A DNA stretch of 64,000 nt, taken from contig JBMFRC010000004.1 of assembly GCA_049968235.1 (NCBI GenBank), positions 96,001 through 160,000 of the forward strand, written 5' to 3'. The stretch's first letter is position 1. Each line of letters begins with the position of its first letter. Of this stretch, positions 3,762 to 49,115 are shown in pieces. The notes beneath the pieces are model-generated. The model saw only the letters and a list, made by a program, of their open reading frames with translations. It ran no database searches and had not been told where the DNA came from. A program made the position numbers and the translations under genes. The stretch comes from Candidatus Hydrogenedens sp. (GTDB lineage Bacteria > Hydrogenedentota > Hydrogenedentia > Hydrogenedentales > Hydrogenedentaceae).

Positions 3762-3781
3762 CTTATCCGTAACAAGTGCAA

Positions 3782-6318: not shown

Positions 6319-6596
6319 ACTCTATTCTCCTCTTTTAAGGTCTGTTCCTATTCAATTTTTCCTATACTACTTAATTAATTGTCTTTTTTAATTATAAAAA
6401 AAAAAAATTATTTGTCAAGACCTTTTTCTAAATTTTCTAAATTTTATAAATTAATTATTTTGAAAAAGAATGTTTTCTCCCATAAAGAACATTATTGAAC
6501 AAACCCTAAGTATGTATGACTTTTCTTTTATATAATATTTCTCCAAGGTAACATAAAAGTGAATAAAAACATAACTAACCCAACATATTCTAATCA

Positions 6597-28649: not shown

Positions 28650-30512
28650 TTAATTTGTTTTTAAATCACTCTGTATCATATTAGCACTATCGGGAATAGA
28701 ATTCAACAAAGCATTATTTTCAAGGGGTAGGTGAAGAAGAAATAAGGGAGTATTTTTTAAGGTAGGTACATAAGTATCTGTTGTCCACTTTTTCAATCCT
28801 AATCGCACTTGTTTTCCTGCAACTCCATCTACAGGTAAGCCCATTTCTTTCTGCAAATTTTTTACTGCTTTTTGTGTTTCCTCGTCAAATTTATCTGTGT
28901 TGTTATTTTTAGATAACCATCCCCCTTTTTGTAGAAGTGTTTTCAATTGGGCAACAGTGTCTCCAGAAGAACCTATTGATAATGATTTAACTCTGGAGTC
29001 ATCATCTTTCCAAGGTATAACAGTAAGGTTTGTAAAAATAGCACGAAATTGGTCTTTGGGGACTTCTACTAATCTTTGTGAACCTAAAAATAAGACAATT
29101 TTATCTCCCCTTTCCTGAACAAGAGCACACCAGAATTCTTTTTCATTCTGTTTTATATATACCATTGCAGGCAATCCAATTGTTAAAAATTGCGAGACAG
29201 TTGTTTGTAATATTTCTGCGGATAAGCCATTTTCATTAAAAAATCGCACCAATCCTTGCGGAGAGTTATCGTCGGGTTGGCTTTTTACTTGAGCCATGTT
29301 CCACATTCGTAATAAGAGTAAGGCTCCATCTACACGACTCTTTTCTACATCTGGATTCAGTTCTTCTATAGATGGTATTGTGTCTTTTTCTTTTTGGGGC
29401 ATCTCTTCAAAAAATCGTTTCCATAAACCTTCAATGAGTTTTGCGGAAAATTCCGGATTAATATCATTTGCCGGATTTTTACTAACGGCTTCCACTTGTG
29501 ATGTAAAATTTGGATTTGTGTTAGAACTTTGAGAATGCGGAGAAAAGATATCATTAAAGTTTCTTAATTCTTGAGCCATTTCATTTATAGGGATATACCA
29601 TATACGAAGAGCAATCAGGATTAAAGCAATTCCAACAATTAATGACGGGCTTGGGATAAGTTTTTTCCAGTCTTTTTTTCTTATTGGGGTGGGTTGTGGA
29701 TTTTCGAGTTGTCCATGGAGTTCTTTCAATGCCTGTTTTACAATATATTGGTCTATTACTTTCTTTTCTCGTGTATAACCAACCAGCAAAGCCCTGTCAC
29801 AGATAGAATTTATAAGGCGGGGAATACCTTTACTATGTTTATAAATCAATTTATATGCTTTTGGAGCAAATTGAATCCGCTTTTTTCCCCCTGCAATATG
29901 AATTCGATAGGCAATATATTGCCGTGTTTCTTGTTCATCCAGAGCATTTAAATGATAGCGGGCTGTTATTCGTTGATTTAACTGCCTTAATTCATGTAGT
30001 TTAAGACGGTCCAACAATTCGGGTTGCCCAATCAGAACAATTTGTAATAGTTTTTCCTTTTCTGTTTCTAAATTTGATAATAACCGTATTTGTTCAAGAA
30101 CAGAAGGGGTCAGGTTTTGTGCTTCATCAATAACCAGGACACAGTTTTTTTGTTGTCGTGATTTAGATAAAAGGAATTCATTTAACTGGTCGGTTAAATC
30201 GAGTAAAGTATCTGCCTTTGTCTGGACTCCGAATTCAGTAAGAATTCTCTTTAATAATTCCACAGGATTAAGGCAGGGATTGAAAATAAAAGCGAGTTCT
30301 GTATCGGGGTCAAGTTGAGATAAAAGTGCACGGCAGATAGTTGTTTTTCCTGTTCCAATTTCCCCTGTTACCATAATAAAACCCATTCTATTTTTTATTC
30401 CAAACAATAGATGAGCAAAAGCCTCTTTGTGCTTTTCACTCAAAAAGAGGTATTTGGGGTCTGGTGTAAGACTAAATGGTTTTTCTTTTAATCCGTAAAA
30501 AGATTCATACAT
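28650..30512 (-). CDS. ExeA/GspA-like AAA ATPase with C-terminal peptidoglycan-binding domain
   Basis: N-terminal FYGLKEKPFSLTPDPKYLF...MVTGEIGTGKTT (ExeA-type AAA_22); central TM; C-terminal PG_binding_1-like GDTVAQLKTLLQKGGWL...DGVAGKQ. Confidence 0.7.
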   Translation of the reverse strand: MYESFYGLKEKPFSLTPDPKYLFLSEKHKEAFAHLLFGIKNRMGFIMVTGEIGTGKTTICRALLSQLDPDTELAFIFNPCLNPVELLKRILTEFGVQTKADTLLDLTDQLNEFLLSKSRQQKNCVLVIDEAQNLTPSVLEQIRLLSNLETEKEKLLQIVLIGQPELLDRLKLHELRQLNQRITARYHLNALDEQETRQYIAYRIHIAGGKKRIQFAPKAYKLIYKHSKGIPRLINSICDRALLVGYTREKKVIDQYIVKQALKELHGQLENPQPTPIRKKDWKKLIPSPSLIVGIALILIALRIWYIPINEMAQELRNFNDIFSPHSQSSNTNPNFTSQVEAVSKNPANDINPEFSAKLIEGLWKRFFEEMPQKEKDTIPSIEELNPDVEKSRVDGALLLLRMWNMAQVKSQPDDNSPQGLVRFFNENGLSAEILQTTVSQFLTIGLPAMVYIKQNEKEFWCALVQERGDKIVLFLGSQRLVEVPKDQFRAIFTNLTVIPWKDDDSRVKSLSIGSSGDTVAQLKTLLQKGGWLSKNNNTDKFDEETQKAVKNLQKEMGLPVDGVAGKQVRLGLKKWTTDTYVPTLKNTPLFLLHLPLENNALLNSIPDSANMIQSDLKTN

Positions 30513-32081: not shown

Positions 32082-32894
32082 TTAGGAACTAATTTCTAGT
32101 TTTGCATTGCAAGTTAAAAGCCTTGTAAGTTCTATCTTACAAGGCTTTTTGATTTCTTCTTCTAATTTTCCAATTGAGTAAAACTTTATTTTGCCAGATA
32201 TTGTATCTTTTACAATCAGACATCCTGTAATGGGGGTTGTTTCGTCTTTCCATATAAAGATTATATACTCATAAGCAGGAATAGTCCAGAAATTAAAATC
32301 ATTAAGTTTTTGAGGCAGGTTCTCTTTTATTATAGATAATACCTTGTTTAAAATTTTTTTTCTTTTTTCTACTGGGGATTTCAATTTATATAGTGATTCA
32401 TATACTGTCCAGAGGATTAATGATATACCTGGACTTTCATCTAGACCGTTTAAATAGTTTTTTTCGTTTAAATATTGTTTTATTTTTTCTGTTTTTCTTC
32501 TGGAGTTTTCTATGTCAATTCCTACTGGGGATTTAGAATACAATGCCAATATCATCCATTTATCTGTGTGTGCAATCGAAAGGAAAATGGTTTGAGGTGG
32601 GGTAGAAAAAAAATTATTATGTAATATTTCTTCTTCTCTTTTTATGGAATTATAATATCGTATATTTACAGGGTTTGTCTGCATAATGTATAGGAAAAGG
32701 AGCCTACTTAATAATAATTCTTTCCTTCGTTTTTGTGATTGGCAGTTGGAAATATGGTTAGTAAATTCAGATGTAACTATTTTGTTTTTCTGAACAAGGA
32801 CAGACAAATCCTGTTCTGAGAATAAATCCATAGGTATTAATAATAGGGAGATATTTTCATCCAATAAAAAATGGGGCATAAAGAAAAGACTCAT
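32082..32894 (-). CDS. Sfp-type 4'-phosphopantetheinyl transferase
   Basis: SIAHTDKW...VGIDIE (G-x-D-x-E) and W..YESLYKLK (W-x-x-K-E-S-x-x-K) PPTase motifs; 4-nt overlap with upstream gene. Confidence 0.65.
   Translation of the reverse strand: MSLFFMPHFLLDENISLLLIPMDLFSEQDLSVLVQKNKIVTSEFTNHISNCQSQKRRKELLLSRLLFLYIMQTNPVNIRYYNSIKREEEILHNNFFSTPPQTIFLSIAHTDKWMILALYSKSPVGIDIENSRRKTEKIKQYLNEKNYLNGLDESPGISLILWTVYESLYKLKSPVEKRKKILNKVLSIIKENLPQKLNDFNFWTIPAYEYIIFIWKDETTPITGCLIVKDTISGKIKFYSIGKLEEEIKKPCKIELTRLLTCNAKLEISS
32116..32149. terminator. perfect 14-bp inverted repeat hairpin with flanking T/A runs (candidate bidirectional rho-independent terminator), lying within the 3' coding end of the PPTase ORF
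   Basis: aaaagccttgtaag-ttctat-cttacaaggctttt followed by ttt on plus strand; 40 nt downstream of the Gfo/Idh/MocA stop. Confidence 0.55.
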
Positions 32895-34447
32895 TTCTTC
32901 CTTTCATATATATGTAATGCTCTACCGGAAGGCAAAATATATTGTTTGTAAACATAGTTCTTTTGAAATTCTGCTTCTACAGCCATTTCACGGTCACTTA
33001 CAAATCGAGGTTCTTTATTTCCCGTAGCAGAGCCGAACATAATATAATCGGGTTTTCTTGAAAGGACATACTTTCCATCCCCTTTTTCATGTCCTGCAAA
33101 ACCTTTTCCTAATGTTTTTATCTCTCTATGAGCTATATGTTCATCATTAAGACCTAACATATCAATTATCTTTAAATGTGAATAATAAGCGACACTTCCC
33201 GCTGTATTTGTAGCAAGCAGGGAATTCGGTGGAACATTATCACGGAGCCATAATCCGGTTTCCTTTCCCCTCTCAGCAACGACATCAGCCACAATGCGTT
33301 CGTAAAGGTATGGGTCATTTTTTAATTGCCACAAATTAAAAATTACAATAATAATTACCAATAATAAACTACGAAAGTATGATACGCCGGGAAGGAAGAG
33401 GGAATATGCACTTACGGCAACCAATAAAGGGGTAATGGGAGTATAAAAGCGATGTGCGGGCATACAATCTCCACCTACGGATATAACATAGAGCATATTC
33501 AAAAGAACTGCTAAACTCATCGAAAAAACGACATAACCTCTTTTCTCTAATGTTTTTAGGGGAAATATTTGAAGCATAATAAAAGGAGCCCAGATGAGGG
33601 AAGTCCCTTTCAGAAAGTAGAATGCATAAGTTAATCCTCTTTTAATTTGTTCTTTTGATGAACCTACCTTTACATAGAAAGTATTGGGTAGTAACCAACC
33701 ATAATAGTTATATCTCCATATAAAATAGGGAATAAATACAAGGGAAAATCCTAATATGATAAATATAGGATTAAAGTATTGCTTTTCTTTGAAGGCGTGA
33801 AGAAATGAACAAAAGACAAGAACAGGGAGAATTATTCCTGCATCAGGACGTGACATCACTGCGAGGGCTATTACAACTCCCACAAGGAAATAACCCGATA
33901 ATAATTCTTTATTCCGTGAAATGAAAGCACCAAATAACAATATCGACAGGAAAATTAAAAAGGCGGTCATACTTGTTTCCATACCGCTCATAGCCCAGGA
34001 AGTAAAAGCACCCATAGAGCCTAAAATTAAAACACCTGCAACAGAAACGAGCCAATGCGTTCCTTTAATAATTTTATGGATGCAGGACATTAGAAATATA
34101 GTAATAAATGTAAATAGAACACCCAGAATTTTTGATGTTATAGGCAAATCCAAGCCTATTTTATGTAGTCCCGCTAATAATAGGACCCATAAAAAGCAGG
34201 TATAGCCCTCTACATATTCACCTTCGTTATAGACAATACCTTTTCCTTCGGAAAAATTTTCTGCATACCGAAATGCAATATATGCATCGTCTAATGTCCA
34301 TGGTTGTAAGTAATAGTTATACAAAGATACTAATATTAATGAAATACCAAGAGATATAAGGATAATGAACTCTCCATAACGGGAAATATTAAGTTTTTCC
34401 TTTTTCTCACCTATCTTAAAAAAGCGGAAATTTTCATAAGAATTCAT
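32891..34447 (-). CDS. GT-C fold integral membrane glycosyltransferase-like protein (ArnT/PMT-like), ~11-12 TM + C-terminal soluble domain
   Basis: Many TM helices; first-loop acidic motif LDDAYIAFRYAENF resembles the DE/DD motif of GT39/GT83 enzymes; 518 aa. Confidence 0.5.
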   Translation of the reverse strand: MNSYENFRFFKIGEKKEKLNISRYGEFIILISLGISLILVSLYNYYLQPWTLDDAYIAFRYAENFSEGKGIVYNEGEYVEGYTCFLWVLLLAGLHKIGLDLPITSKILGVLFTFITIFLMSCIHKIIKGTHWLVSVAGVLILGSMGAFTSWAMSGMETSMTAFLIFLSILLFGAFISRNKELLSGYFLVGVVIALAVMSRPDAGIILPVLVFCSFLHAFKEKQYFNPIFIILGFSLVFIPYFIWRYNYYGWLLPNTFYVKVGSSKEQIKRGLTYAFYFLKGTSLIWAPFIMLQIFPLKTLEKRGYVVFSMSLAVLLNMLYVISVGGDCMPAHRFYTPITPLLVAVSAYSLFLPGVSYFRSLLLVIIIVIFNLWQLKNDPYLYERIVADVVAERGKETGLWLRDNVPPNSLLATNTAGSVAYYSHLKIIDMLGLNDEHIAHREIKTLGKGFAGHEKGDGKYVLSRKPDYIMFGSATGNKEPRFVSDREMAVEAEFQKNYVYKQYILPSGRALHIYERKK

Positions 34448-34450
34448 ATA

Positions 34451-35170
34451 TTAACCTCTGCTTAATTTTATTGTCCACCATATACTATACAAGAAATAGT
34501 AAATAACATATATTAGAGATAAATAAATATAGATATGATGTTTGGGATAGTTATAAATAGATAGTATGATAAGAAATGCCCAGATTGAAACTAAAATGAG
34601 ATTTAGTAAACGGTATTGAATGGCTCTGCTGGGATATAAGTAACGAATAGGAATGAATACTAAAATAGTTAACGATAAAATTATTATAAAATTAACTTTC
34701 TCCGGGAAATCTAAAAGAAATATATAAAGCACCACAATATTCCAATACGAAGGGAAACCTTTGAACCAATGGTCTTCTGTTTTTGCATCGGTCTGGCAAA
34801 ATTGATATGCAGAAGAAAGGGTTATCAAAATTGAAGATAATAAATTTAGTTTATAAGGGACACTGTGGGTCTCATATAAAAAACTGGCGGGTACTATTAC
34901 ATAAGTAAAATAATCAACAATATTATCTAATAAAGCACCGTCGAAATTAGGGAGGACATCTTTTACCTTAAATGCACGAGCCAGGATACCATCAATAGAA
35001 TCTATAAAAACAGAAATAGCCATCCATGTAAATGCCTGGACCCATTGATGTCTACCGATAGCAATAATTGCCAAGAAGCCGAAAACAGCACCCATTGCAG
35101 TAAGTAAATGTATCGACCACGCAAGGGTGTATTGAATGCAGGAATACTCTTTATTGTTTGTCATATTCAA
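34451..35170 (-). CDS. CDP-alcohol phosphatidyltransferase family protein, phosphatidylcholine-synthase-like motif spacing
   Basis: DSIDGILARAFKVKDVLPNFDGALLDNIVD = D-G-x2-A-R-x12-G-x3-D-x3-D; x12 spacing rather than x8 is the variant described for Pcs; 239 aa, multi-TM. Confidence 0.5.
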   Translation of the reverse strand: MNMTNNKEYSCIQYTLAWSIHLLTAMGAVFGFLAIIAIGRHQWVQAFTWMAISVFIDSIDGILARAFKVKDVLPNFDGALLDNIVDYFTYVIVPASFLYETHSVPYKLNLLSSILITLSSAYQFCQTDAKTEDHWFKGFPSYWNIVVLYIFLLDFPEKVNFIIILSLTILVFIPIRYLYPSRAIQYRLLNLILVSIWAFLIILSIYNYPKHHIYIYLSLIYVIYYFLYSIWWTIKLSRG

Positions 35171-35193
35171 GCAGTCTATTTATTCTCATGCCT

Positions 35194-36456
35194 TCAAGTC
35201 TTTTCAATATCATGTAATAATTTTACCTTTTTACGAAGGTAATAAAAAAGCAATAACTCAGCAAGTATAACAAAAAATACAAGGAATGTTATGTATTTGT
35301 AAGATATTGTTACTCCGTATTTATCTACTAAAAAACCAAAGATAAGACTTCCCACGACACCCCCTAATCCTACAAGCCCTTCATTAATTGAAGCCCTGCC
35401 ATGTCGGAGAACAGGGTTATTAACACTATAATAGGTGCTGGCAAAGAAAGTTAAGCCATGGTTTGCACCGATTACAGCAAAAGATATGCATATTAATAGG
35501 ATACTTTTTGTTTCTGACAAGAGGTAAAATGTAATAGCACATATCCCTTGAGAAATAATAAGTAAAGAAATGCGATGTTTCCAGAAGTAGGTCCATGCGA
35601 ATAGTAAAAACACACCCGCAGTAGTAAAAGCCATCATTGCAGATGGCCAGGAAAATTTTGTTGCGGGGTCTCCAGTAAGAATAGGACTGACTGAATTTTC
35701 AAATAAGAACCGAAGTTCATTGTTTGAAACTAATTTTTTTAGGTGTTCAGCGTAAGTAGAACGAGGAATTATTGACATTAAGTTGGCAAGAAAAACCCCT
35801 ATCCAAAAAGGATACAAAAACAGATTGTTTGTTTCATCGCCATTGTGATTACTCTCAGAATTTTGTGGGGAGTTATTTTTCAGATTATAATGGCTATTTT
35901 CATTTTGTATGAACAAAAGAAAAATAAAGGAAAGAATGCTTATAAAAAATATCAGGATATAGGGTAATCTGAAATCAATATCGTAAAGAGGTCCTGCAAC
36001 CAGTGGACTAATTGTAAAACCCAAACTCCAAGCAATATTGAAAAAAGCAAGATTTCGTTGTCTTTTAGTTTCATTTGTTTCAGTTCCCACCCATGCATAG
36101 AATGCAGGCCAGGTAATTGCCATACCTATAAAAGCCATTGCAGATAGTAGATAAAAAGCATATTTAGAAGGGAAAAAAGGATATAAGGGATAAGAAAAAG
36201 TAAAAATAATGACCCCCCATCTTGCCCATGATAATATGTTTTTTGATTTTCCCACAATCCTTGATGTTAAAAGACAGGTAATTGTGTAAACTGCCATTTG
36301 TATAGCAAAGACATTTCCGGAGATAGCCGTGTTTCCATTGGGGAGATGGTCGAGAATGAGAAAAGGCAATGCAACAATACCTGCCATAATGGCAAAATCT
36401 ACCCAAAAACCGACCTGGCATAGTAAAAAGAAGGATATAAATCTTTTACGGGACAT
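35194..36456 (-). CDS. MFS family transporter (12 TM)
   Basis: 420 aa with ~12 hydrophobic helices; basic cytoplasmic loop GKSKN between TM2 and TM3 is MFS-like; 23-nt gap to the Pcs-like gene. Confidence 0.65.
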   Translation of the reverse strand: MSRKRFISFFLLCQVGFWVDFAIMAGIVALPFLILDHLPNGNTAISGNVFAIQMAVYTITCLLTSRIVGKSKNILSWARWGVIIFTFSYPLYPFFPSKYAFYLLSAMAFIGMAITWPAFYAWVGTETNETKRQRNLAFFNIAWSLGFTISPLVAGPLYDIDFRLPYILIFFISILSFIFLLFIQNENSHYNLKNNSPQNSESNHNGDETNNLFLYPFWIGVFLANLMSIIPRSTYAEHLKKLVSNNELRFLFENSVSPILTGDPATKFSWPSAMMAFTTAGVFLLFAWTYFWKHRISLLIISQGICAITFYLLSETKSILLICISFAVIGANHGLTFFASTYYSVNNPVLRHGRASINEGLVGLGGVVGSLIFGFLVDKYGVTISYKYITFLVFFVILAELLLFYYLRKKVKLLHDIEKT

Positions 36457-36560: not shown

Positions 36561-37691
36561 TTATCCAATCGTTTTATGGAATCGGAATGAGGCAATAAAA
36601 AGGATGATAATCCCCATAGCTCCGAGAATTGCACCGTTGTGCCATAAATCCCAGAAACCTGCATTGCGAAGAATAATCCCGCGTAGAATTCGAATAAAAT
36701 AGGTAGCGGGGACAATCTGTCCAAACCAATAAATAATTTTGGGCATGGTTTCTTGTGGGAACATAAAACCGGAAAGAAGGAATGAAGGTAATAGTATCAG
36801 AAATGAGATTTGTAATGCTTGAATTTGATTCTGGGCAAAAGTAGAAACCAGTAATCCCATACCTAATGTAGTGAAAAGAAATATTCCGGCGAAGAAAGCC
36901 AGGAGAAGGACACTTCCGGCAATAGGAACTTGAAATAAAAATCGCATTAAAAACAGAACCGAGGCTGTTTCACATATTCCCACACCTAAAAAAGGAATTA
37001 ATTTACCTAACATCAGCCCAAAGCGAGAGACAGGTGTAACCACCAATTGTTCTAATGTTCTCTGTTCTTTTTCTTTTACAATAGCGAAAGATGTTAGGAG
37101 CATTATTACTACTTGAAGGATAACTCCGCATAAGCCGGGAATCATAAAATTTGCTGTTCTCATATCGGGATTGAATAATACGCGGGGTCGCATATCAATA
37201 GGGAACTGAGAAGGTAGGACTTTTGTTTTGTTTAATACTTTTATTGAAGCCCTTAATCCGATGGCATTACTTACATTTAAAGCCTGCATTGCCACTGTAG
37301 AATCGCTACCATCGATGAGGATTTGTATGCTAACATGTTCATTTTTCAACACGCGGTCTGTATAGTAAGGAGGAATATGGATACCGACACGAACATCTCC
37401 CCTACGCATAGATGTAGCCATTTCTTCTTCATTGTTGAAAATCTTAACAATGTCAAAATATCCTGAATTTACGAACTGGTCTGCTAAATTTCTACTCTCT
37501 ATCTTTTTATCTTGATTTAATATACCTGTCCGAATATTTTTTATATCTAAATTGACAGCAAAGCCAAAAATGATGAGTTCAATACTTGGAATAACTAACA
37601 TTAAGAAAAGACTTCGTGGGTCTCTGACAATGTGTCTTGTTTCTTTGTAAATAATTGCAAAAAGCCCTTGAAACATATCTTCACTTTCCAA
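36561..37691 (-). CDS. ABC-2 type transporter permease
   Basis: 376 aa; N-terminal TM, periplasmic domain, then a C-terminal bundle of 5 TM helices; overlaps the ATPase gene by 11 nt. Confidence 0.75.
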   Translation of the reverse strand: MESEDMFQGLFAIIYKETRHIVRDPRSLFLMLVIPSIELIIFGFAVNLDIKNIRTGILNQDKKIESRNLADQFVNSGYFDIVKIFNNEEEMATSMRRGDVRVGIHIPPYYTDRVLKNEHVSIQILIDGSDSTVAMQALNVSNAIGLRASIKVLNKTKVLPSQFPIDMRPRVLFNPDMRTANFMIPGLCGVILQVVIMLLTSFAIVKEKEQRTLEQLVVTPVSRFGLMLGKLIPFLGVGICETASVLFLMRFLFQVPIAGSVLLLAFFAGIFLFTTLGMGLLVSTFAQNQIQALQISFLILLPSFLLSGFMFPQETMPKIIYWFGQIVPATYFIRILRGIILRNAGFWDLWHNGAILGAMGIIILFIASFRFHKTIG

Positions 37692-38667
37692 AAGAACGAG
37701 TTAAAGTCACGAAAACATCTTCAAGTGTTGGCGGAACTACTCGTAAACTCTGAATATGAAATCCTTTTTTCTGAATAGATTGTTGGAGTTCATCTTCGCT
37801 TCCCTTTTGAATAAGAATATGAATAACATCCGAAAACATGGTGGCATCCCTGACAAAAGTCATTCTTAACAACTCTCGCATGGCTTCTGTAAGTCGGTCT
37901 ATTCTGAGTTCATATCGCACAAATCCTTCTGGTGTTACTTGTGGCATCTTTTTTAATTCTTCCGGGGAACCATAAGCAATAAGTTTTGAAAAGTAGATAT
38001 ATCCGAGGTGGGAACATCGTTCCGCTTCATCCATATAGTGAGTTGTAACAAAAAAAGTCGTTCCACGTGCGGAGAGGTCAAATAAGAGATTCCATAAGTC
38101 ACGACGGGCAACAGGGTCAATTCCTGCGGTAGGCTCATCTAAGAATAACAATTTCGGATTATGAACCAGTGAACAGGCAAGAGCAAGTCTTTGTTTCCAT
38201 CCTCCGGATAAAGAACCTGATAATTGGTTCAGGTAAGGTTTGATATCTACAATATTAATTACTTCATCAATTCGCTCTTTTCTTTGTTTTCGGGGGATAC
38301 CGTAAATTTTAGCATAAAAAGTAATATTTTCAAGGACGGTGAGGTCAGCATATAGACTGAATTGTTGGGACATATAGCCAATCGATTTTTTTATTTCTTC
38401 ACTTTCAGAAACTACATCATAACCTAAAACCCTTGCTTCACCGGAGGTAGGACGAAGAATACCACATAACATACGAATTAAGGTTGTCTTTCCGGAACCA
38501 TTAGGACCTAAAAAACCGAATATATCTCGTTTTCGAACTGTTAATGAAACACGGTCAACAGCAGTGTGTACGCCAAATTTTCGGGATAATTCATTTACCT
38601 CGATTACTGCAGGGTAAACCTGCTGTGAAATGTGGTTGTCTTCTACCTGTGACATATATAGGCTCAT
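37681..38667 (-). CDS. ABC transporter ATP-binding protein
   Basis: Walker A GPNGSGKTT, signature LSGGWKQRLALA, Walker B LLFLDEPTAGID. Confidence 0.85.
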   Translation of the reverse strand: MSLYMSQVEDNHISQQVYPAVIEVNELSRKFGVHTAVDRVSLTVRKRDIFGFLGPNGSGKTTLIRMLCGILRPTSGEARVLGYDVVSESEEIKKSIGYMSQQFSLYADLTVLENITFYAKIYGIPRKQRKERIDEVINIVDIKPYLNQLSGSLSGGWKQRLALACSLVHNPKLLFLDEPTAGIDPVARRDLWNLLFDLSARGTTFFVTTHYMDEAERCSHLGYIYFSKLIAYGSPEELKKMPQVTPEGFVRYELRIDRLTEAMRELLRMTFVRDATMFSDVIHILIQKGSEDELQQSIQKKGFHIQSLRVVPPTLEDVFVTLTRSFGK

Positions 38668-39800
38668 CGTGTTAATGGGACTTTCACAGTAGCAGTCATT
38701 CCTGCACGAAGTTTACCGTTATATGAGTTAAGGGACAATTTCACAGCAAACACTTGTTGTATTCTCTCTTCCTGTGTTTGTAAATTTCGAGGAGTAAATT
38801 CACCTTCGGAAGCAATATAGATAATTTTTCCTGAAAATGTTTCATCTCTATGAGCGTCTGTAACAAAGGTCAAATTTTGTCCTATGGAAATATAACCCAA
38901 CACATAGGCAGGGACATATATAACCATTTCCAAATCGTCCGGGTTCACAATACGGATACAGGGACCCGGGGGAACAATATCTCCTTTACGAACAGATACA
39001 GACTCTACAATACCATCGATTGGCGAGTTAACAGTGCACTCTTTCCTGACTGAATCAGCCCTTGATAATTCGGCGAGGGCTGATTCTAAAGCCGATTCTG
39101 CAGAACGGATATCTTCAATTCGTGGTCCTCTTTTTATTTCATCAAACATAGCAACAGTTCGTTCCCAATTTGCTTTTGCTGATTCTATTTCTTCTTCCCG
39201 GGCACCTTTTTGAAGTTGTTTATATCTTTCATCCGCTACGCGATATTCTGCTTTTGCTTTTTCAAAAAGTATTTTTGCTTGTTCCCATTCTTTTTTAGAA
39301 ACTGCTCCTTCGTTAAATAGTCGTTCTGCTCGTTCGTAATCGCGTTTGGCTATTTCAAAGGTAGATTTTGCGGATTCCAGTGTAGCTTTTGCAGATTGTT
39401 TATCTTCTTCTCTTGCTCCTGCAAGCAAAAGCCGATATTGTGCTTCTGCAGTTTTCATAGCATTTTCTGCCTGACGGAGTTCTTCCTCCGTAGCACCTCT
39501 TTTTAACTTTTCCACCAGGGATTCGGCACGTTTAACTCCAGCAAGGGCGGATTGATACATTGACTCCTGTTGGTTACAGTCAAACTGAATTAGAGTAGTA
39601 TCTTTTTTTACGAAATCCCCTTCTTTAACAAAAACATCAATAATACGACCTCCAATTGTCGAACCTGGCGTATGGACTTTGCATTCGATTTGTCCTGAAA
39701 CTAAAAAGGAAGTTTTTTCTTCTTTGGTGCATGAGCAAAATGTAATAGAACTAATTAAAAGTATTGTAGGAATTTTTTTGTAGAAAATCTTATATTTCAT
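38664..39800 (-). CDS. HlyD-family membrane fusion (periplasmic adaptor) lipoprotein
   Basis: Lipobox ITFCSC; long coiled-coil with repeated EEEL/ERLF heptads; C-terminal beta-barrel segment; 4-nt overlap with the ABC ATPase. Confidence 0.75.
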   Translation of the reverse strand: MKYKIFYKKIPTILLISSITFCSCTKEEKTSFLVSGQIECKVHTPGSTIGGRIIDVFVKEGDFVKKDTTLIQFDCNQQESMYQSALAGVKRAESLVEKLKRGATEEELRQAENAMKTAEAQYRLLLAGAREEDKQSAKATLESAKSTFEIAKRDYERAERLFNEGAVSKKEWEQAKILFEKAKAEYRVADERYKQLQKGAREEEIESAKANWERTVAMFDEIKRGPRIEDIRSAESALESALAELSRADSVRKECTVNSPIDGIVESVSVRKGDIVPPGPCIRIVNPDDLEMVIYVPAYVLGYISIGQNLTFVTDAHRDETFSGKIIYIASEGEFTPRNLQTQEERIQQVFAVKLSLNSYNGKLRAGMTATVKVPLTR

Positions 39801-39921: not shown

Positions 39922-41253
39922 TTATTTTTTAATTTCAACGAGCCCGAAAGTCATTGATGCTTCTGCAACGACTTGATTTTCTACAGAAGCAATTACTCTT
40001 GCTTTGAACAAATCATTTCGGTAATACAACATCTCTGCTTCTACAACAAGTTGGTCTCCGGGAACGACTAAGCGTCTTAGTGAAGCATTCTCTATCCCAA
40101 TGAAATATGCTTGATAAAGTGGGGGTTCTCCATTTTCACGGAATATAAGGACAGAAGAAACCTGTGCCATGGCTTCAAGAATTAAAACACTGGGCATTAC
40201 AGGAACATCAGGCCAGTGTCCTTGAAAGAATGGCTCGTTTACAGTTACATTTTTGATACCCACTACTTTTTTCATAGATGTAAATTCTATAATTCTATCC
40301 ACCAGGAGAAATGGGTAGCGATGCGGTAATATTCTTAATATTTTGTTTACATCTAAAACAGGGATTTGTCGGTGAGCAGTGGGTCTCGGGTCATGAACCG
40401 CATAAATGCCATATCCGTTTAAATATACTTTTTTAATTTGTTTTGTAAACATGACATTTTTTTCATGTCCGGACTTGACACCGATAATATGTCCAATTAG
40501 AGGTCGCCCTAAAAGATAGGTATCTCCAAGCAAATCAAGAATTTTATGGCGAACGAACTCATCCGGGAAACGAAGTCCATCATTTAGAATTTCTTCATCA
40601 CCAATAACGACTGCACTTTCAAGACTACCTCCCATAATCAATCCCTGTTCTTTTAACATTTTTACTTCTTTCAGAAAACAAAAAGTTCGGGCGGGGGCGA
40701 TTTGAGACATAAAGGTTTCTTCGTTTACGGGGAAACTTGCATACTGGGTTCCGATGGCTACATGGTCGTATGCAATAGTCATTGTTACTCGTAATTCATC
40801 GGAAGGGAGAATATTTAAGGTAACTTCATCCTGTCTATAATAAACAGGTCTATCCACAAGCAGTGCCCTTTTTGGCTCTTCTTGTTCGGTAATTCCTGCT
40901 CTTAAAAGGCAATTCATTACAGGGAGGGCACTACCATCTCCATTGGGTATTTCTTCATTGTCGAGTTCTATATATAAATTATCAATACCTAAACCTGCCA
41001 TTGCTGCTAAGCCATGTTCAACGGTGCGGACTTTAGCACTACCAATACCTATTGTCGTTCCTCGTGAGACATCAACAACATGGTCAATATTAGCAGGGAT
41101 AGCGGGTTTACCAGCCATATCTGTTCGTATAAAAATGATACCTGTATCGGGTGGAGCAGGTTTGAATGTTACTGTGGTCAAACTTCCACTATGTAATCCT
41201 ACTCCTGAAAAAGATACTTCTTTGCTAATGGTTCTTTGGTTTTTCATACGCAA
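39922..41253 (-). CDS. lpxC-fabZ: bifunctional UDP-3-O-acyl-N-acetylglucosamine deacetylase / 3-hydroxyacyl-ACP dehydratase (LpxC-FabZ fusion)
   Basis: N-terminal LpxC block (FVRHKILDLLGDTYLLG...KSGHEKN, matching E. coli VRHKMLDAIGDL...KSGH); C-terminal FabZ block (LPHRYPFLLVDRI...GHWPDVPVMPSVLILEAMAQ). Confidence 0.85.
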   Translation of the reverse strand: MRMKNQRTISKEVSFSGVGLHSGSLTTVTFKPAPPDTGIIFIRTDMAGKPAIPANIDHVVDVSRGTTIGIGSAKVRTVEHGLAAMAGLGIDNLYIELDNEEIPNGDGSALPVMNCLLRAGITEQEEPKRALLVDRPVYYRQDEVTLNILPSDELRVTMTIAYDHVAIGTQYASFPVNEETFMSQIAPARTFCFLKEVKMLKEQGLIMGGSLESAVVIGDEEILNDGLRFPDEFVRHKILDLLGDTYLLGRPLIGHIIGVKSGHEKNVMFTKQIKKVYLNGYGIYAVHDPRPTAHRQIPVLDVNKILRILPHRYPFLLVDRIIEFTSMKKVVGIKNVTVNEPFFQGHWPDVPVMPSVLILEAMAQVSSVLIFRENGEPPLYQAYFIGIENASLRRLVVPGDQLVVEAEMLYYRNDLFKARVIASVENQVVAEASMTFGLVEIKK

Positions 41254-42305
41254 TCGTTCTCTATTTTTTGAATTTTTATTTCAAGGTCTTTAACTCTTTT
41301 AAGTAGTTCTGGTAAATATTGTTGGGCAACTAATATCCGTTTGGCTCGGGAATGCTCTACAGCAGGAAATCCTGAAAGAATAGCGTCTTTTTCTACGGAT
41401 TTTACTACTCCCGACCATGCGCCGATAGTTGCATTATCTTCGATTGTTATATGTCCGTTAATACCGGCACCTGCACCAATACGAACGCCATTGCCTATAA
41501 CTGCGCTTCCGGCTATGCCCGTAGTTGCAGCAATAGCACAATTATCACCAATTTTAACATTATGTCCTATCTGAACTAAATTATCAATTTTAGTTCCGGA
41601 ACCTATTTTTGTTTCGCCAAAGGTTGCTCTATCAATACAGGAATTACTTCCAATTTCTACATTATCACCAATAATTACCCGTCCCATTTGAGGAACTTTA
41701 ATCCATGCATTACCATCGAACACAAAACCAAATCCGTCCGTGCCGATACAAACTCCAGCATGTATAATACATTGAGAACCTATGGTAGTATTTTCGCGAA
41801 TGGTTACATTAGGGAAAATACATGTGTTCTCGCCTATCTGGCAATTATCGCCGATATAGACATTGGGAAAGATTATGGTGTTTTTCCTAATTTGTGAGTT
41901 TTTTCCAATAAATACATGAGGGCCTATTGCAATTCCTTCTTCTAATTGCACATTTTCTTCAAGAATAGCAGTAGGATGAAGTCCTCTGGGAATAGAAGGT
42001 TGAGAAAATCCAATTTTTTGGAGTATTTGAATAAAAGCAATTTCCGGGTTTTTTACGGCAATGCACACGATTTTTTCAGGTAGGGGAACTGTGGGTTCTT
42101 CTGCGATAAGAACAGCGGAAGCACGTGTCTGGGAAAGGAAAGTTTCATATCTTTTATCACGAATAAATATTAAATCTCCTTCGCGTGCATTCTCTATACT
42201 ATTCAAACCTGTTATTAAAGTATCTTCCTCCCCCCTGATAATTTTGCCGTCTACCCATTGTGCTATTTGTATTGCTTTTATTTGCATTTGTTTTCGAGTA
42301 TTCAA
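41244..42305 (-). CDS. lpxD: UDP-3-O-(3-hydroxyacyl)glucosamine N-acyltransferase
   Basis: 353 aa; N-terminal LpxD domain followed by extensive hexapeptide repeats (IGDNCQIGENTCIFPNVTIRENTTIGSQCIIHAGVCIG...); conserved position between skp and fabZ. Confidence 0.8.
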   Translation of the reverse strand: MNTRKQMQIKAIQIAQWVDGKIIRGEEDTLITGLNSIENAREGDLIFIRDKRYETFLSQTRASAVLIAEEPTVPLPEKIVCIAVKNPEIAFIQILQKIGFSQPSIPRGLHPTAILEENVQLEEGIAIGPHVFIGKNSQIRKNTIIFPNVYIGDNCQIGENTCIFPNVTIRENTTIGSQCIIHAGVCIGTDGFGFVFDGNAWIKVPQMGRVIIGDNVEIGSNSCIDRATFGETKIGSGTKIDNLVQIGHNVKIGDNCAIAATTGIAGSAVIGNGVRIGAGAGINGHITIEDNATIGAWSGVVKSVEKDAILSGFPAVEHSRAKRILVAQQYLPELLKRVKDLEIKIQKIENDCV

Positions 42306-42337
42306 ATATGATTATAGTATTGGCAATTCTACCGCAG

Positions 42338-42931
42338 TTATTTTTTGGGTTTGGATGTATCCGTTGCGGAAGAATTAGAATTTAAATATGTTAAAACTTT
42401 AGAAGTAATATCCATAGTTGGACTATGAAATAGCAAGCTACTTTTTAGAGATTTACCCGCATTAAAAACAAGGTGATAATTATCAGAAGTTGCTATTATA
42501 TTTACTGCATTCTGAATATCGTCCAGACATTCACGAATAATTCTTTCTTCTTTACTATCAATTGTCTTTTGTCGTTTCTCAAGTTCAGCCCGATATGATG
42601 CTGCTTCTTGTTCTATCTTCATTTTCAAATCAAGTTTTTCTTCATCGCTCAGGGTTGCTTTACCGGATTCAAGTTTTTTACGGTCTTCTTCAATGCGGTT
42701 CATTAAACTATCTAGGTCTTTTTGCTGAGTGTCTACTTCTTTCTGGAGTTCTTCGTATTTTTGTTTTCTTTTATTATATTCCCTCATAATAAGTTCAACA
42801 TCGACAACAGCGATTCTGTAAGATGTTCCTGTACCTGTAGTTTTAGCAGGTTCTTGTGCTGTTACATACCTTAAAGGAATTAAAATACAACTTAAAGCGA
42901 ATAACGAAATGAAAAAATATCTCCCTTTCAC
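42338..42931 (-). CDS. skp: OmpH/Skp-like periplasmic chaperone
   Basis: 197 aa, signal peptide, highly charged coiled-coil (QKYEELQKEVDTQQKDLDSLMNRIEEDRKKLES); canonical position after bamA. Confidence 0.7.
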   Translation of the reverse strand: MKGRYFFISLFALSCILIPLRYVTAQEPAKTTGTGTSYRIAVVDVELIMREYNKRKQKYEELQKEVDTQQKDLDSLMNRIEEDRKKLESGKATLSDEEKLDLKMKIEQEAASYRAELEKRQKTIDSKEERIIRECLDDIQNAVNIIATSDNYHLVFNAGKSLKSSLLFHSPTMDITSKVLTYLNSNSSATDTSKPKK

Positions 42932-43055
42932 AACTTTTCCTTTCTTTTATAGGGTTAATTAACAATTCAGTATAATAAACGAAAGTATATCACATTTTTA
43001 TTTTAAATTTCATTATTTCATGATAGAGAAAATGATTTTAAACTATACTTATGAA

Positions 43056-45371
43056 TTAAAATTGTAAACCTGTGGTCAGATGTAACTTACCATTTCCCTG
43101 GTCTTCATCTGGGTTAAGCGGTATGCCGTAATCTATACGAATAGGTCCAAATTTTGGAATTTCGGCGCCCAATCCAAGTCCGGCACTATACTTTAGGTCG
43201 GATAAATCAAAGTCATTTTCATCCTTCCATACACCACCCATATCAACAAAGGAGTAAATACGGATCATATTTGTTAATTTATATTTTAATTCTAAATTAT
43301 TGACCAGACGGAGATTCCCTCCTTCAGCAATCCAGTCTCCAAACCAGCCATATTCACGAATCTTAGGACCGATATCACGGTAATCGTATCCACGGACTGT
43401 AGTAGTTCCACCTGCATAAAATCTGTAAATCAATGGGATATAATCGGAATCGCCATATTCAGTCATCCAGCCTTCACGGGTTCTTAACATTAAGACCCAT
43501 TTTTGATTTTTGTCTAATGCCTTAAACCATGATAGGTCTAATTGCAACTTAACAAAATTATTGTCGCCTCCGAGTCCTGCAAGCTCAGAACTCAAGATGG
43601 CATTGATACCCCGGGATGGGTCTCTGGGACGGTCCAAAGTATTTCTTTCAAGACTCAATATAGTGCTAACTGTGGTTGAATTTTCGGTTTGTCTACGAAT
43701 TTCTCTATTAATGAACCATGGCAAATCACTAACATCTACATCTTCTACACGGAATGATAAACGGGCGGTGTTATATAATGAAAGAGCTTTTCCAAATCGT
43801 ATTTGTCCACCTGCCTGATTTTCCCGATAATCCGCACCACCCCTTACCCAATAGGATTCGTTATAGAGGTCAACACCTAAAGATATAGGGTAACCTAAAA
43901 TTTCAGGGTCTGTAAAACTTACATTATAGCGGTCTCTTCTATCCCCAAGGTGAACGCGAGCTGAAAATTGCTGTCCACCACCAGAAAAATGGGGCCAGTT
44001 GGTAATGTCAAAGTTTCTCAAACGAAGTTGTGCAAATCCACCAACACCTTCATCTGTGCTATAGCCTGCCCCAAATAAAAATGAATTGGTTTTTCCTTCT
44101 TCAACATCGACAAGCAAATTGGAATATCTTGTGTCAATCTCATCATCTGTAAGTGTGATACGAACTTTATCAAAATAGTCTGTATTTTCAAGCCTTAACC
44201 GACTGGATTCTATAGAGGAGCCATCATACCTTTCACCGGGCTTTATTAACATTTGTCGGCGAATGACATCATCTTGAGTAACATCGTTACCGGTAATATC
44301 TATTTGTTTAATATATTTTAATTCGCCTTCTGATATATTATATACGATATTTGTTGTTTTATTTTGTTCATCTTTTGATACCTGTGGTGTAACTGTTGCA
44401 TCGACGTAGCCACTATCGCGATATTTGATTTCTAATTTTTGGGCATCTTTAGCAACCTGCCCTTTATTATGAATATCTTCAGGTTTTACTTTTATTTCTT
44501 TCTCGAATTCGTCATTGTCGTATACAGTATTATTTGCATACTGAATGGAATTAACTTTGTACTGTTCTCCTTCTTCTACAAATAATTTAATTTTTAATTT
44601 TTTACCTCCATCTGTGTAGAGGACATCTGTATGTGTTACCTTTGCATCTAAATATCCGTTATCTCCATATTTATTTATGACATTTTCCAAATCATTTTCG
44701 AATTTTGTTTCATCATATTTTCCACCTAAAAACCACCAAGCAGGTTTTGTCTTCATTGCCTTTTTAATTTGTCGGTCTGATAAAGCGATGTTTCCTTCGA
44801 TTTCAATTTCTTTAATACGTGCTTTTTTACCTTCATCAATGGAGTATATAATCCGAACAAGTCCGGGTTCTATTTTTTCCGTTATGACATCAACTTTCGT
44901 ATTTGCATAACCTTTGCCCTGATACATATTAATAATAGATTTTCTGTCTTCTTCACATAATTCTGGAATAAAGGAAGCACCTCTTTTCTGTTTTAAGGTA
45001 GGTTCTATGACACGTGGTTTTATCTTCTTGCAACCTATTATTTTTACATCTGCAATTCTTCGTTCTTCTTCAACAATGAATACAACCTTCACTCCATTTC
45101 CTTCTGGAGTAACTTCTGCATCGACTTTTACAAAATAACCCAGACCGTAAATTCTTTTTAAATCTCTTGCGATAGAACGAGGATTTAAGTTTTGTCCCGT
45201 TTTTGTTTCTACTTTACCCAAAACTACCTGTTCATTTATTTTTTCTAATCCTTTTACCTGAACAGCAGTTATTTCCTTTCCGGCGTATTCTTCTAATTGA
45301 GCCATGAGATTACTGCAAAACAGAAAAATAGCGAAAAAATAACCTACATACATGTATCTTGTGTTCAACAT
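43056..45371 (-). CDS. bamA: outer membrane protein assembly factor BamA
   Basis: 771 aa; signal peptide; POTRA-like repeats followed by C-terminal beta-barrel ending ...KLHLTTGLQF (aromatic C-terminal residue). Confidence 0.8.
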   Translation of the reverse strand: MLNTRYMYVGYFFAIFLFCSNLMAQLEEYAGKEITAVQVKGLEKINEQVVLGKVETKTGQNLNPRSIARDLKRIYGLGYFVKVDAEVTPEGNGVKVVFIVEEERRIADVKIIGCKKIKPRVIEPTLKQKRGASFIPELCEEDRKSIINMYQGKGYANTKVDVITEKIEPGLVRIIYSIDEGKKARIKEIEIEGNIALSDRQIKKAMKTKPAWWFLGGKYDETKFENDLENVINKYGDNGYLDAKVTHTDVLYTDGGKKLKIKLFVEEGEQYKVNSIQYANNTVYDNDEFEKEIKVKPEDIHNKGQVAKDAQKLEIKYRDSGYVDATVTPQVSKDEQNKTTNIVYNISEGELKYIKQIDITGNDVTQDDVIRRQMLIKPGERYDGSSIESSRLRLENTDYFDKVRITLTDDEIDTRYSNLLVDVEEGKTNSFLFGAGYSTDEGVGGFAQLRLRNFDITNWPHFSGGGQQFSARVHLGDRRDRYNVSFTDPEILGYPISLGVDLYNESYWVRGGADYRENQAGGQIRFGKALSLYNTARLSFRVEDVDVSDLPWFINREIRRQTENSTTVSTILSLERNTLDRPRDPSRGINAILSSELAGLGGDNNFVKLQLDLSWFKALDKNQKWVLMLRTREGWMTEYGDSDYIPLIYRFYAGGTTTVRGYDYRDIGPKIREYGWFGDWIAEGGNLRLVNNLELKYKLTNMIRIYSFVDMGGVWKDENDFDLSDLKYSAGLGLGAEIPKFGPIRIDYGIPLNPDEDQGNGKLHLTTGLQF

Positions 45372-45430: not shown

Positions 45431-47932
45431 CTAATTTGTTATTAATTTTACTGTATTATTATCGTTTTTTTGTAACTGATTTTCAAATTCATTTTCTATC
45501 TGAGTAAATTCCAATTTTTTGTTATCCTCGGAAAATGTAATTAGTATAGTATTTCCTTCTTTAATATCACCAATAAGTAATTTTTCTGCAAGGGGGTCTT
45601 CGATATTTTGTTGAATAGCCCGTCTTAAGGGTCGAGCTCCATATTCTTCACTACTACCAATTTGCACAAGGAATTTTTTTGCTTCAGGTGTAATTTCTAA
45701 TTTTACCTGTTTCTCCGTTAATTTTTTAGCAACTTCGGCAATCTGTATATCTATAATTTTTTCTAATTCTTCCTGAGTAAGCCGATGAAACACTAAAATC
45801 TCATCCAATCTATTTAGAAATTCGGGATTAAAAGTTTTTCGTACTTCTTCCATTACGCGGTCGCGCATTTTTTCGTATTCTTCTTCAATGGTATCTTTTT
45901 GAAATCCTAACGAAGTGGATTTTCCGATTTTACGGGCTCCAATGTTGGAAGTTAATACTATAACTGTGTTTTTGAAATCTATTTTTCTTCCACTCCCATC
46001 TGTCATTTGTCCTTCTTCAAGGATTTGAAGTAATGTGTTAAATATATCTGGATGTGCCTTTTCTATTTCGTCGAACAGAACAACTGAATAAGGTCTTCTT
46101 CGCACCTGCTCTGTAAGTTGTCCTCCTTCATCATAACCAATATATCCTGGAGGTGCACCCATTAAACGGGATACAGTAAATTTTTCCATATATTCGGACA
46201 TATCCAGTGTAATTAATGCTCGCTCATCTCCGAATAAAAATTCTGCCAATTTTTTTGCAAGTAATGTTTTACCTACACCGGTAGGACCTAAGAAAAGAAA
46301 AGACCCTACAGGGCGATTACTATGGCGTATGCCGGCTCTTGACCTTTGTATGGCTCGGGTAATAGCATCGATAGCCATATCCTGTCCGACGATAGATTTA
46401 TGTAATTCATCACGCATACGAAGTAATCGTTCGGATTCTGTTTCTCCAATTTTGGTCAGGGGAACACCTGTCCATTTGGATACGACATAAGCAATATCTT
46501 CCGAAGTTACAATTGCTTGAGAAGAATCCCTTTGTGATTCCCATTCTTTTTTCTTTTCCTGATACTGGGACTGAAGTCGGCGTTCTTTGTCTCTCAATGA
46601 CGCTGCTTTTTCAAATTCCTGATGCTTTATTGCTATTTCTTTTTCTTGTGTTACTTTTTCTATTTCTATTTCTAACTCTTTTAATTCTTTAGGACGTGTA
46701 GTAATCTGCAATCGCACTCGACTTCCGGCTTCATCCAACACATCTATTGCTTTATCCGGTAAATAACGGTCTGTAATATATTGGTCGGAAAGTTTCACGG
46801 CAGAGATAATGGCATCATCTGTATATTTAACTTTATGATGGGCTTCATATTTATCCCGGAGTCCTTCGAGAATTTTTATTGTTCCTTCTGGAGAAGGCGC
46901 TTCAACAAAAATAGTTTGAAAGCGTCTGGCTAATGCTGCATCTTTTTCAATATATTTTCGATATTCATCCGCAGTAGTTGCACCAATGCATTGAAGTTCT
47001 CCTCGTGCGAGTGCGGGTTTTAACATATTTGCTGCGTCCACAGCCCCTTCTGCGGCACCTGCACCGACAATGGTATGTATTTCATCAATAAAAAGAATGA
47101 TATTATCTTCACGTTGAATTTCTTTCATTACACTCTTTAGTCGCTCTTCAAACTGGCCTCGATATTTTGTCCCTGCAATAACAGACCCTAAATCCAATGT
47201 CAATACTCTTTTATTAAGAAGTAAATCGGGGACATTTCCATTAACAATAGATTGAGCAAGTCCTTCCACAATTGCAGTTTTACCTACGCCGGCTTCTCCA
47301 ATTAAAACAGGATTATTTTTTGTTCTTCTGCTCAATATTTGTATAACCCTCTCTATTTCAGTTTCTCTGCCAATTACAGGGTCTAATTTCCCTTCTCTTG
47401 CTAAGAAAGTTAGGTCTCTGCCGAATGTGTCAAGTGCCGGTGTTGTAGATTTTCTCCGTTCGTGCATTTCACCTTTAGAACTGGGTTTTCCATGTTCCCC
47501 AAGTAGTTTCATGATTTCTGTTTGTGCTCGATTTAAATCGACACCAAACTCGGCTAACAATTTAGCGGCGACACTTTCTCCTTCTTTGATTAGCCCTAAA
47601 AGTATATGTTCTGTCCCGATATAGCTATGATTAAAGCGATGTGCTTCTTCTGCTGCCATTTCCAATACTTTTTTGGCACGGGGAGTATATGTTATTTCTT
47701 CGGAGGTAAGTAAGGCAGGTCCCTGCGGACTCCGGTGTTCTATTTCTTGTATTAATTGTTCTAAATCTATCCCCATACTCAGTAATGCTTTTGCTGCAAT
47801 TCCTTCAACTTCGAGACAAAGAGCAAAGAGGATATGTTCGGTTCGTACATATTCACTGCCTCTTTTCACGGCTTCAGTTCGAGCAACTGATATTACATGT
47901 CGGGCTCTCTCTGTAAAGCGTTCCCACAACAT
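45431..47932 (-). CDS. clpC: ATP-dependent Clp protease ATP-binding subunit ClpC (ClpA/B family with mid UVR motif)
   Basis: Two Clp_N repeats; NBD1 Walker A GEAGVGKT; internal UVR-like [16 protein letters not shown] between NBDs; NBD2 Walker A GPTGVGKT. Confidence 0.85.
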
Positions 47933-47969
47933 TTATTTTCTCCCTAAAAATGTATTCTTTTATGAATAA

Positions 47970-49112: not shown

Positions 49113-49115
49113 AAA

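Follow-up and report, generated by a model that had tools for sequence, protein, structure and literature searches.

Do four adjacent genes that encode a transporter, a phospholipid synthase, a membrane glycosyltransferase and a carrier-protein-priming enzyme make up one dedicated pathway, or does each protein simply do the usual job of its family? This question is raised by a stretch of 64,000 nucleotides (nt) from Candidatus Hydrogenedens sp. (GenBank assembly GCA_049968235.1, contig JBMFRC010000004.1, positions 96,001 to 160,000 of the forward strand), hereafter the window, in which four tightly packed minus-strand genes occupy positions 32082-36456. A preliminary description of the locus proposed that these genes may form an uncharacterised module for membrane-lipid or glycolipid modification. 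On balance, we favour a different reading, in which the genes are an envelope operon specific to the Hydrogenedentota, located at the end of a conserved envelope supercluster, with each enzyme in the ordinary role of its family and no single dedicated pathway. What is new is the lineage-specific arrangement; the enzymes themselves belong to known kinds.

Four tightly spaced genes

Open reading frame (ORF) calling reproduced the four minus-strand genes together with the spacing originally given for them, namely gaps of 23, 3 and -4 nt between the longest ORFs, and all four products are of membrane-biogenesis type. The first gene of the unit (35194..36456) encodes a 420-amino-acid (aa) transporter of the major facilitator superfamily (MFS). 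It is followed by a gene for a CDP-alcohol phosphatidyltransferase of the phosphatidylcholine synthase (Pcs) family (34451..35170; 239 aa when started at a TTG), a gene for an AftB-like membrane glycosyltransferase of the GT-C class (GT-CA; 32891..34447; 518 aa), and an ORF of 270 aa for a divergent Sfp-type (group II) 4'-phosphopantetheinyl transferase (PPTase; 32082..32894). Public gene calls and all homologues place two of the starts further downstream: that of Pcs at the ATG at 35164, two codons inside the TTG-started ORF, which makes a protein of 237 aa likelier, and that of the PPTase at M6, an ATG at position 32879, which gives a likely length of 265 aa. An exact-sequence look-up of the 239-aa ORF returned no match, because databases start it at the ATG. 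With the database and homologue starts, the gaps are likely to be 29, 3 and +11 nt, and are thus still tight.

Across the clade, the MFS, Pcs and GT-C genes lie at most 29 nt apart or overlap by 8-23 nt, the overlaps being found in L086-L088, three of the related loci that we compared. The gap between the preceding ABC-2 permease gene and the MFS gene, on the other hand, is 104 nt in the window and ~100-138 nt across relatives. Given that the tight junctions are kept clade-wide, as against this wider spacing before the MFS gene, we regard the four genes as a transcription unit, and their co-transcription as plausible from the layout. A scan for promoter and terminator consensus sequences gave counts equal to the shuffled expectation and was uninformative on operon boundaries, except for one strong hairpin that is described below. 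All four genes are under purifying selection, with ratios of non-synonymous to synonymous substitution (dN/dS) of 0.05-0.10 for the MFS, Pcs and GT-C genes and 0.27-0.36 for the PPTase gene. PADLOC gave no matches, and hence no sign of membership in a defence system.

A phosphatidyltransferase of the Pcs family

The transferase carries the sequence DSIDGILAR-AFKVKDVLPNFD-GALLDNIVD at residue 55, corresponding to DxxDGxxAR-x12-GxxxDxxxD. The D-G-x2-A-R-x12-G-x3-D-x3-D spacing to which attention was first drawn is therefore present, and the motif, including the x12 spacing, is invariant in 13/13 diverse relatives. The x12 version of the CDP-alcohol motif has been described as specific to Pcs (PMC3972451). 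Consistent with this, the five best NCBIfam matches of the protein are all five Pcs models, at 233, 183, 178, 169 and 166-167 bits (E 4e-69 to 6.5e-49), whereas the same protein scores 52 bits against archaetidylserine synthase, 49 bits against PssA (6.5e-13) and 18 bits against phosphatidylinositol phosphate synthase (1e-3). These hidden Markov model (HMM) assignments bear out the Pcs-like identity proposed earlier, and the clustering with PgsA or archaeal-type enzymes that would have spoken against it was not seen. Residues 4-234 of the protein align with 2-241 of the Legionella-type Pcs model, a match over the whole length, and many family residues beyond the motif are invariant in it. A search returned 3,659 relatives, many of them named phosphatidylcholine synthase, with 50-61% identity across phyla.

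We conclude that the protein is a member of the Pcs family but falls in none of its five characterised clades, as judged by model scores. It resembles the bacterial Pcs enzymes of the Sinorhizobium, Legionella, Agrobacterium, Pseudomonas and Borrelia types in its full-length best HMM matches, its x12 motif, its length of ~240 aa and its multiple membrane spans. It differs from them in scoring below every curated equivalog cut-off (e.g. 233 vs 440 bits for the Legionella type) and in the position of its gene between MFS and GT-C genes, an arrangement seen only in Hydrogenedentota. Because the protein scores under all of these cut-offs, it is family membership, and only that, which points to choline as its substrate.

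The Pcs pathway requires exogenous, imported choline (PMC10434233), and the coupling of a transporter gene to pcs therefore makes sense. The MFS protein matches Pfam MFS_1 (4.7e-22) and is generic and DHA1-like, with weak similarity to drug:H+ antiporters of the Tet/NorA type; its orthologues within Hydrogenedentota are 54-94% identical. Solved structures returned only NorA, at E ~1e-4, and were set aside as a guide to the substrate, as was a faint similarity to LplT/Aas (E 0.0046), which was too weak to use. It is plausible that the MFS protein supplies choline, as the preliminary description had suggested. In the two closest outgroups (L089 and L090, with Pcs identities of 58-62%), a transporter gene of the EamA/drug-metabolite transporter (DMT) type directly follows Pcs on the same strand, which hints at choline-supply partners of Pcs that vary with lineage. 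At loci outside Hydrogenedentota (e.g. L161), the gene after Pcs encodes an alkaline phosphatase in nine cases and a GNAT protein in another nine.

A GT-C glycosyltransferase closest to AftB

The third gene product has no Pfam family. When a profile built from 19 GT-C sequences was searched against the Protein Data Bank (PDB), the only match was AftB (9dlf; E 4.3e-23). In this alignment WtlDD falls on WIADD, D53-D54 on D61-D62, and R200 of an RPE motif on R221; a GGDxM...R motif also aligns, with R333 one position off R372 in the HMM alignment, and a C-terminal iD.lGl...aH...GH.K motif aligns weakly. The two DD aspartates, R200 and R333 are invariant in the 19 sequences. D62, R221 and R372 of AftB are catalytic or essential (PMC12041299), and the window protein thus retains the DD aspartate on which catalysis depends, at the tip of juxtamembrane (JM) helix 1, as well as the phosphate-binding Arg set of AftB.

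An AlphaFold2 (AF2) model of the protein (pLDDT 87, pTM 0.89) shows a GT-C fold with a multi-helix transmembrane core and a periplasmic cap. In a Foldseek search with this model AftB was the best match (E 3.2e-10, TM-score 0.62, ~540 columns), ahead of STT3, AglB, PglB and ArnT. The GT-C assignment made at the outset thus stands, but the nearest relative, by sequence and by fold, is AftB and not the ArnT/PMT enzymes to which the protein had been likened. AftB is the terminal beta-(1->2)-arabinofuranosyltransferase of mycobacteria (PDB 9dlf/9dlh). The window protein shares with it the sole PDB sequence match, the best fold match, and the DD, RPE-R, GGDxM and C-terminal motifs, but it is only 19-20% identical, has 518 aa to the 669 aa of AftB with a much smaller periplasmic domain, and belongs to a diderm host without arabinogalactan. 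Its score of 52 bits against the NCBIfam AftB equivalog, with a cut-off of 1050, places it outside AftB orthology. No genes of the decaprenylphosphoryl-arabinose (DPA) pathway (UbiA-type phosphoribosyltransferase, DprE1/E2) were seen in the 64-kb window.

The AftB-like family to which the protein belongs is large, with 488 or more protein clusters and no fewer than 597 genome loci (30-48% identity), from Zixibacteria, Chloroflexota, Ignavibacteria, Myxococcota, Acidobacteriota and Planctomycetota, among others. A minus-strand gene at 54826-55569 encodes a 247-aa family 2 glycosyltransferase (GT2). In NCBIfam it is matched best by polyprenyl-phosphate sugar synthases of the PpgS, AglJ, PgfS and ArnC types, in each case below cut-off; judging by these matches, it is a candidate for the synthase of a lipid-linked donor for the GT-C enzyme, 20 kb from the GT-C gene. 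We also considered the C-terminus of the GT-C protein as a sulfatase- or alkaline-phosphatase-like phosphotransferase that would use phosphatidylcholine as a phosphocholine donor, and rejected this idea since the whole protein aligns to AftB in sequence and fold.

A divergent Sfp-type PPTase

The last gene product scores 17.4 bits against Pfam ACPS, under the gathering threshold of 25, and a protein identical to it (100%) is labelled 'hypothetical protein' in a Candidatus Hydrogenedens metagenome-assembled genome (MAG), in which the GT-C enzyme and the transferase also have matches, on a 254-kb contig. Nevertheless, the Sfp-type identity proposed in the preliminary description is well founded. 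A profile of 11 orthologues (A2) matches Bacillus subtilis Sfp (1qr0) at 2e-5 over H90/D107/E109/W147/E151/K155. An AF2 model (pLDDT 86) has the pseudo-dimeric, two-lobed PPTase fold, and all 13 of its Foldseek matches at E<=1e-3 are group II PPTases (AASDHPPT, PptT, PptAb; probability 1.00). The motifs SxSH[ST], IDI(E) and WTxxE[SA]xxK are found in 11/11 orthologues, the corresponding signatures in the window protein being SIAHT101, VGIDIE120 and WTVYESLYK157, and H104, D122, E161 and K165 do not vary, not even between orthologues at 20-28% identity.

The protein shares its two-lobed fold and three signature motifs, including the Mg2+-binding/catalytic Asp/Glu and the Lys, with Sfp-type PPTases such as Sfp, human AASDHPPT, PptT/PptAb, PcpS, AcpT and HetI. 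It differs from them in scoring under the ACPS threshold and in the W/F-x-x-K-E motif, where the Lys is replaced by Tyr, Phe or His. When 1.84 billion representatives were searched exhaustively with HMMER, only nine proteins reached E<=1e-10. The next tier was a continuum of ACPS/4PPT_N proteins of 190-230 aa, which pass the Pfam ACPS threshold and are closest to AcpT, HetI, EntD and AusB; the window protein is 35-60 aa longer than these.

The PPTase gene is the fastest-evolving one of a 20-kb block, with 25% identity where its neighbours keep 54-88%: at that depth the GT-C protein retains 61%, Pcs 65-67%, MFS 54-56% and BamA 83%. Its dN/dS of 0.27-0.36 compares with 0.05-0.10 in its operon partners and 0.01-0.10 among neighbours, from which we conclude that selection on the PPTase sequence is relaxed but clearly purifying. 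By these sequence measures the PPTases of this lineage are a tiny, isolated and fast-evolving clade.

A six-frame scan of the 64-kb window (phmmer --max with five queries for acyl, peptidyl and aryl carrier proteins, i.e. ACP, PCP and ArCP) returned no ACP/PCP-like ORF, the best hit having an E value of 0.022 and 10 bits, in agreement with the initial remark that no carrier-protein gene lies nearby. The same lack of a nearby carrier-protein gene applies to PcpS.

The arrangement is confined to Hydrogenedentota

The four genes occur in the same order in every relative examined (L001-L008, L086-L088 and L108), down to a GT-C identity of 61%. They are, however, part of a block of ~20 kb that is collinear in Hydrogenedentota as a whole, in the order bamA-skp-lpxD-lpxC/fabZ-hlyD-ABC-ABC2-MFS-Pcs-GT-C-PPTase, and the genes that follow are collinear as well: a convergent GFO/IDH/MocA gene, then genes for an AAA22/peptidoglycan-binding protein, a hybrid kinase and an SLT/LysM protein. 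Since the entire neighbourhood, including unrelated flanking genes, is collinear, gene order within the clade carries no independent information on coupling, and we set aside synteny among close relatives as a sign of it. Tight synteny inside a wholly collinear clade is, as a general caution, no evidence of a shared pathway.

We therefore turned to loci in other lineages, searched at profile sensitivity. Neither Pcs nor any PPTase was found at any of 76 GT-C loci from outside the clade, for which 1.14 Mb of flanking sequence was covered (65 of the loci with at least 3 kb upstream and 58 with at least 3 kb downstream), and neither a GT-C gene nor a PPTase gene was found at any of 79 Pcs loci from other lineages. 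In a distant Hydrogenedentota MAG, genes for an FKBP protein and an M50 protease come after Pcs, with no GT-C or PPTase gene downstream. The co-occurrence of the four genes is thus observed only in Hydrogenedentota. A lack of co-occurrence in other genomes, which had been named beforehand as an outcome that would speak against a module, is largely what we observe, and the data on co-occurrence outside this one collinear lineage lend the proposed lipid or glycolipid modification module no support.

The recurrent neighbours of Pcs elsewhere are genes for isoleucyl-tRNA synthetase, GNAT proteins, alkaline phosphatase and glutathione S-transferase (GST). No recurrent neighbour of the GT-C gene was found in other phyla, no neighbour family being present at more than 6 of the 76 loci, and an attempt to deduce the donor or acceptor of the enzyme in this way was abandoned on that account. 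The GT-C loci L009-L085, from many non-actinobacterial phyla, have no conserved gene neighbour.

A lineage-specific envelope operon as the favoured reading

Upstream of the four genes, on the same strand, lie genes for an HlyD-type adaptor, an ABC ATPase and an ABC-2 permease (36561..39800), which by Pfam and NCBIfam matches resemble a YbhG/F/S-like exporter and directly precede the MFS gene, and beyond them bamA, ompH/skp, lpxD and an lpxC-fabZ fusion (39922..45371; Pfam Omp85/POTRA, OmpH and LpxD/Hexapep, with LpxC and FabA domains in orthologues). From these assignments, the bamA-to-lpxC/fabZ genes are a cluster for the biogenesis of the outer membrane and of lipid A, whose enzymes LpxD and FabZ act with acyl-ACP.

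In the reading that we favour, Pcs would condense exogenous choline with CDP-diacylglycerol to give phosphatidylcholine, and the MFS protein, translationally coupled to it, would be the most likely route across the inner membrane for choline or a related substrate. The GT-C enzyme, in the inner membrane, would use its conserved DD aspartate to glycosylate a glycan or glycolipid of the envelope on the periplasmic side, with a polyprenyl-phosphate sugar as the donor. The Sfp-type PPTase, with CoA and Mg2+, would take a carrier protein whose gene lies elsewhere from the apo to the holo state, the most likely target being the ACP on which LpxD, FabZ and phospholipid synthesis draw. That LpxD and FabZ use acyl-ACP, together with the precedent of Pseudomonas PcpS, a single Sfp-type PPTase that serves fatty-acid synthesis (PMC13001928), makes the location of the PPTase gene explicable without a carrier-protein gene nearby.

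Several observations weigh against this reading. The Pcs scores lie below the equivalog cut-offs, as described above. The MFS transporter, an MFS_1 protein with Tet/NorA-type similarity, is not in the known families of bacterial choline importers (BCCT BetT, ABC ChoXWV/OpuB, DMT LicB). Evolution as fast as that of the PPTase is unexpected for a sole, essential housekeeping enzyme. Finally, overlapping or near-abutting genes usually signal functional coupling, and a shared pathway is thus possible.

We weighed four other explanations, none of which has positive comparative support. The one to which we give most weight, while still judging it unlikely, concerns the PPTase: the enzyme may be an accessory one that primes a distant, specialised carrier protein (for secondary metabolism, polyunsaturated fatty acids or another purpose), its position a historical accident and the housekeeping role filled by a separate AcpS. 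Its dN/dS, its 25% identity where BamA keeps 83%, the resemblance of its nearest ordinary relatives to the mostly pathway-dedicated AcpT, HetI, EntD and AusB, and the failure to find a carrier protein within 64 kb all fit this proposal. However, the gene keeps the same position and intact catalytic residues in every clade genome examined and sits in a lipid cluster that consumes acyl-ACP, and Sfp-type PPTases are in general poorly conserved. An integrated lipid or glycolipid module seems distinctly improbable. It might resemble a three-component system, in which a head group or donor, linked to lipid by the transferase, would be flipped by the MFS protein into the periplasmic leaflet and there be glycosylated by the GT-C enzyme or serve it as a donor. 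Systems of a synthase, a flippase and a GT-C enzyme are a known design (PMC11127046), and the tight, partly overlapping MFS/Pcs/GT-C junctions are kept over the clade. The locus is also like the three-component periplasmic glycosylation systems (Gtr, GT136) in having a GT-C gene beside a membrane transporter and an enzyme that forms a lipid head group. The known systems, however, use GT2/UbiA-type polyprenyl-phosphate-sugar synthases and GtrA/MATE flippases, and neither is adjacent to the GT-C gene; the locus has Pcs and MFS in their place and so falls outside this class, the only polyprenyl-phosphate-sugar-synthase-like GT2 in the window is 20 kb away, and the arrangement is confined to one lineage. 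Moreover, the transferase is a solid Pcs member, 50-61% identical to hundreds of Pcs genes without a nearby GT-C gene, the GT-C gene stands alone at the 76 loci of other phyla, and phosphatidylcholine has no hydroxyl group to glycosylate.

The remaining explanations appear very unlikely. If the Pcs-family enzyme used an alcohol other than choline, a different phospholipid would then be processed by the products of the neighbouring genes; the scores below all five equivalog cut-offs would be accounted for, but the full-length alignment to the Legionella-type model, the Pcs-specific x12 spacing (PMC3972451) and the many invariant family residues beyond the motif leave this proposal little credence. 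We give slightly less still to a link between the PPTase and the GT-C enzyme through holo-ACP bound to the cytoplasmic face of the latter, as AcpM is on mycobacterial EmbB and AftD. EmbB2-AcpM2 complexes exist, and loss of the interaction lowers arabinan branching in vivo (PMC7305291), a precedent to which AftD has been added as a further ACP-bound case; the GT-C protein is homologous to an arabinofuranosyltransferase, and the PPTase gene comes directly after its gene. The paper on the AftB structure, on the other hand, makes no mention of an acyl carrier protein (PMC12041299), no PPTase gene is near any other locus of the GT-C family (76 loci), and the window yielded no ACP gene. In the boldest reading, the four genes would be one new pathway, with either a holo-carrier-dependent, AftB-like GT-C enzyme served by its own co-evolving PPTase, which would extend the Emb/AftD-AcpM relationship beyond mycobacteria, or a GT-C enzyme that acts on, or is regulated by, phosphatidylcholine that the upstream MFS-Pcs pair makes and positions; we consider this a long shot. 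Such an integrated reading, if true, would establish a new link between carrier-protein priming, phosphatidylcholine synthesis and periplasmic glycosylation.

If the lineage-specific envelope operon is the correct reading, the Hydrogenedentota of digesters and sediments, a phylum that is uncultured, probably scavenge choline and build phosphatidylcholine from it. It would also follow that AftB-like GT-C enzymes constitute a large family, lacking a Pfam entry, that extends across many non-actinobacterial phyla, and that Sfp-type PPTases can diverge past the detection limits of standard annotation.

A hairpin within the 3' coding end of the PPTase gene

The strongest hairpin of the region in the terminator scan has a 14-bp stem with an A-tract and a T-tract (32116..32149). 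It is embedded in the final ~25 codons of the PPTase ORF; the GFO/IDH/MocA gene, which converges on it, has its stop codon ~40 nt before the hairpin. The peptide that the two arms encode (KPCK and LTRL) is conserved better than any other in this rapidly evolving protein. A hairpin of 12-14 bp is kept in 10/10 relatives (L001, L002, L004-L006, L008, L086-L088 and L108) through compensatory substitutions, and the stems in L086 and L087 are wholly different. In the cases inspected, a T-run lies 3' of the hairpin on the GFO-sense strand; in the Hydrogenedens group there is a UUUU on the PPTase-sense side too. These features suggest that the hairpin is probably the intrinsic terminator of the GFO gene, overprinted on PPTase coding sequence, and that it is possibly bidirectional.

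Other genes of the window

The LpxC-FabZ fusion gene (39922-41253, minus strand; 443 aa) overlaps lpxD and is not followed by lpxA, the HlyD/ABC/ABC-2 exporter genes being in that position. Directly upstream of bamA, on the same strand, is an mcsA-mcsB-clpC-like trio (45431-49643, minus strand) for a UVR-motif protein, an ATP:guanido phosphotransferase and a ClpC-type AAA+ protein. The AAA22/peptidoglycan-binding protein that adjoins the block in all relatives has 620 aa in the window (28650-30512, minus strand); against the model for XrtA/PEP-CTERM-associated ATPases, with its cut-off of 324.5, the N-terminal AAA_22 ATPase reaches 310 bits, and the protein further contains a C39-like region and ends in a peptidoglycan-binding domain. 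At the far end, seven consecutive minus-strand ORFs of 230-504 aa (214-7610), six of them without a Pfam match and one with only a divergent InlB B-repeat, fall where the GC content of the window is lowest (27% at 1-2000).

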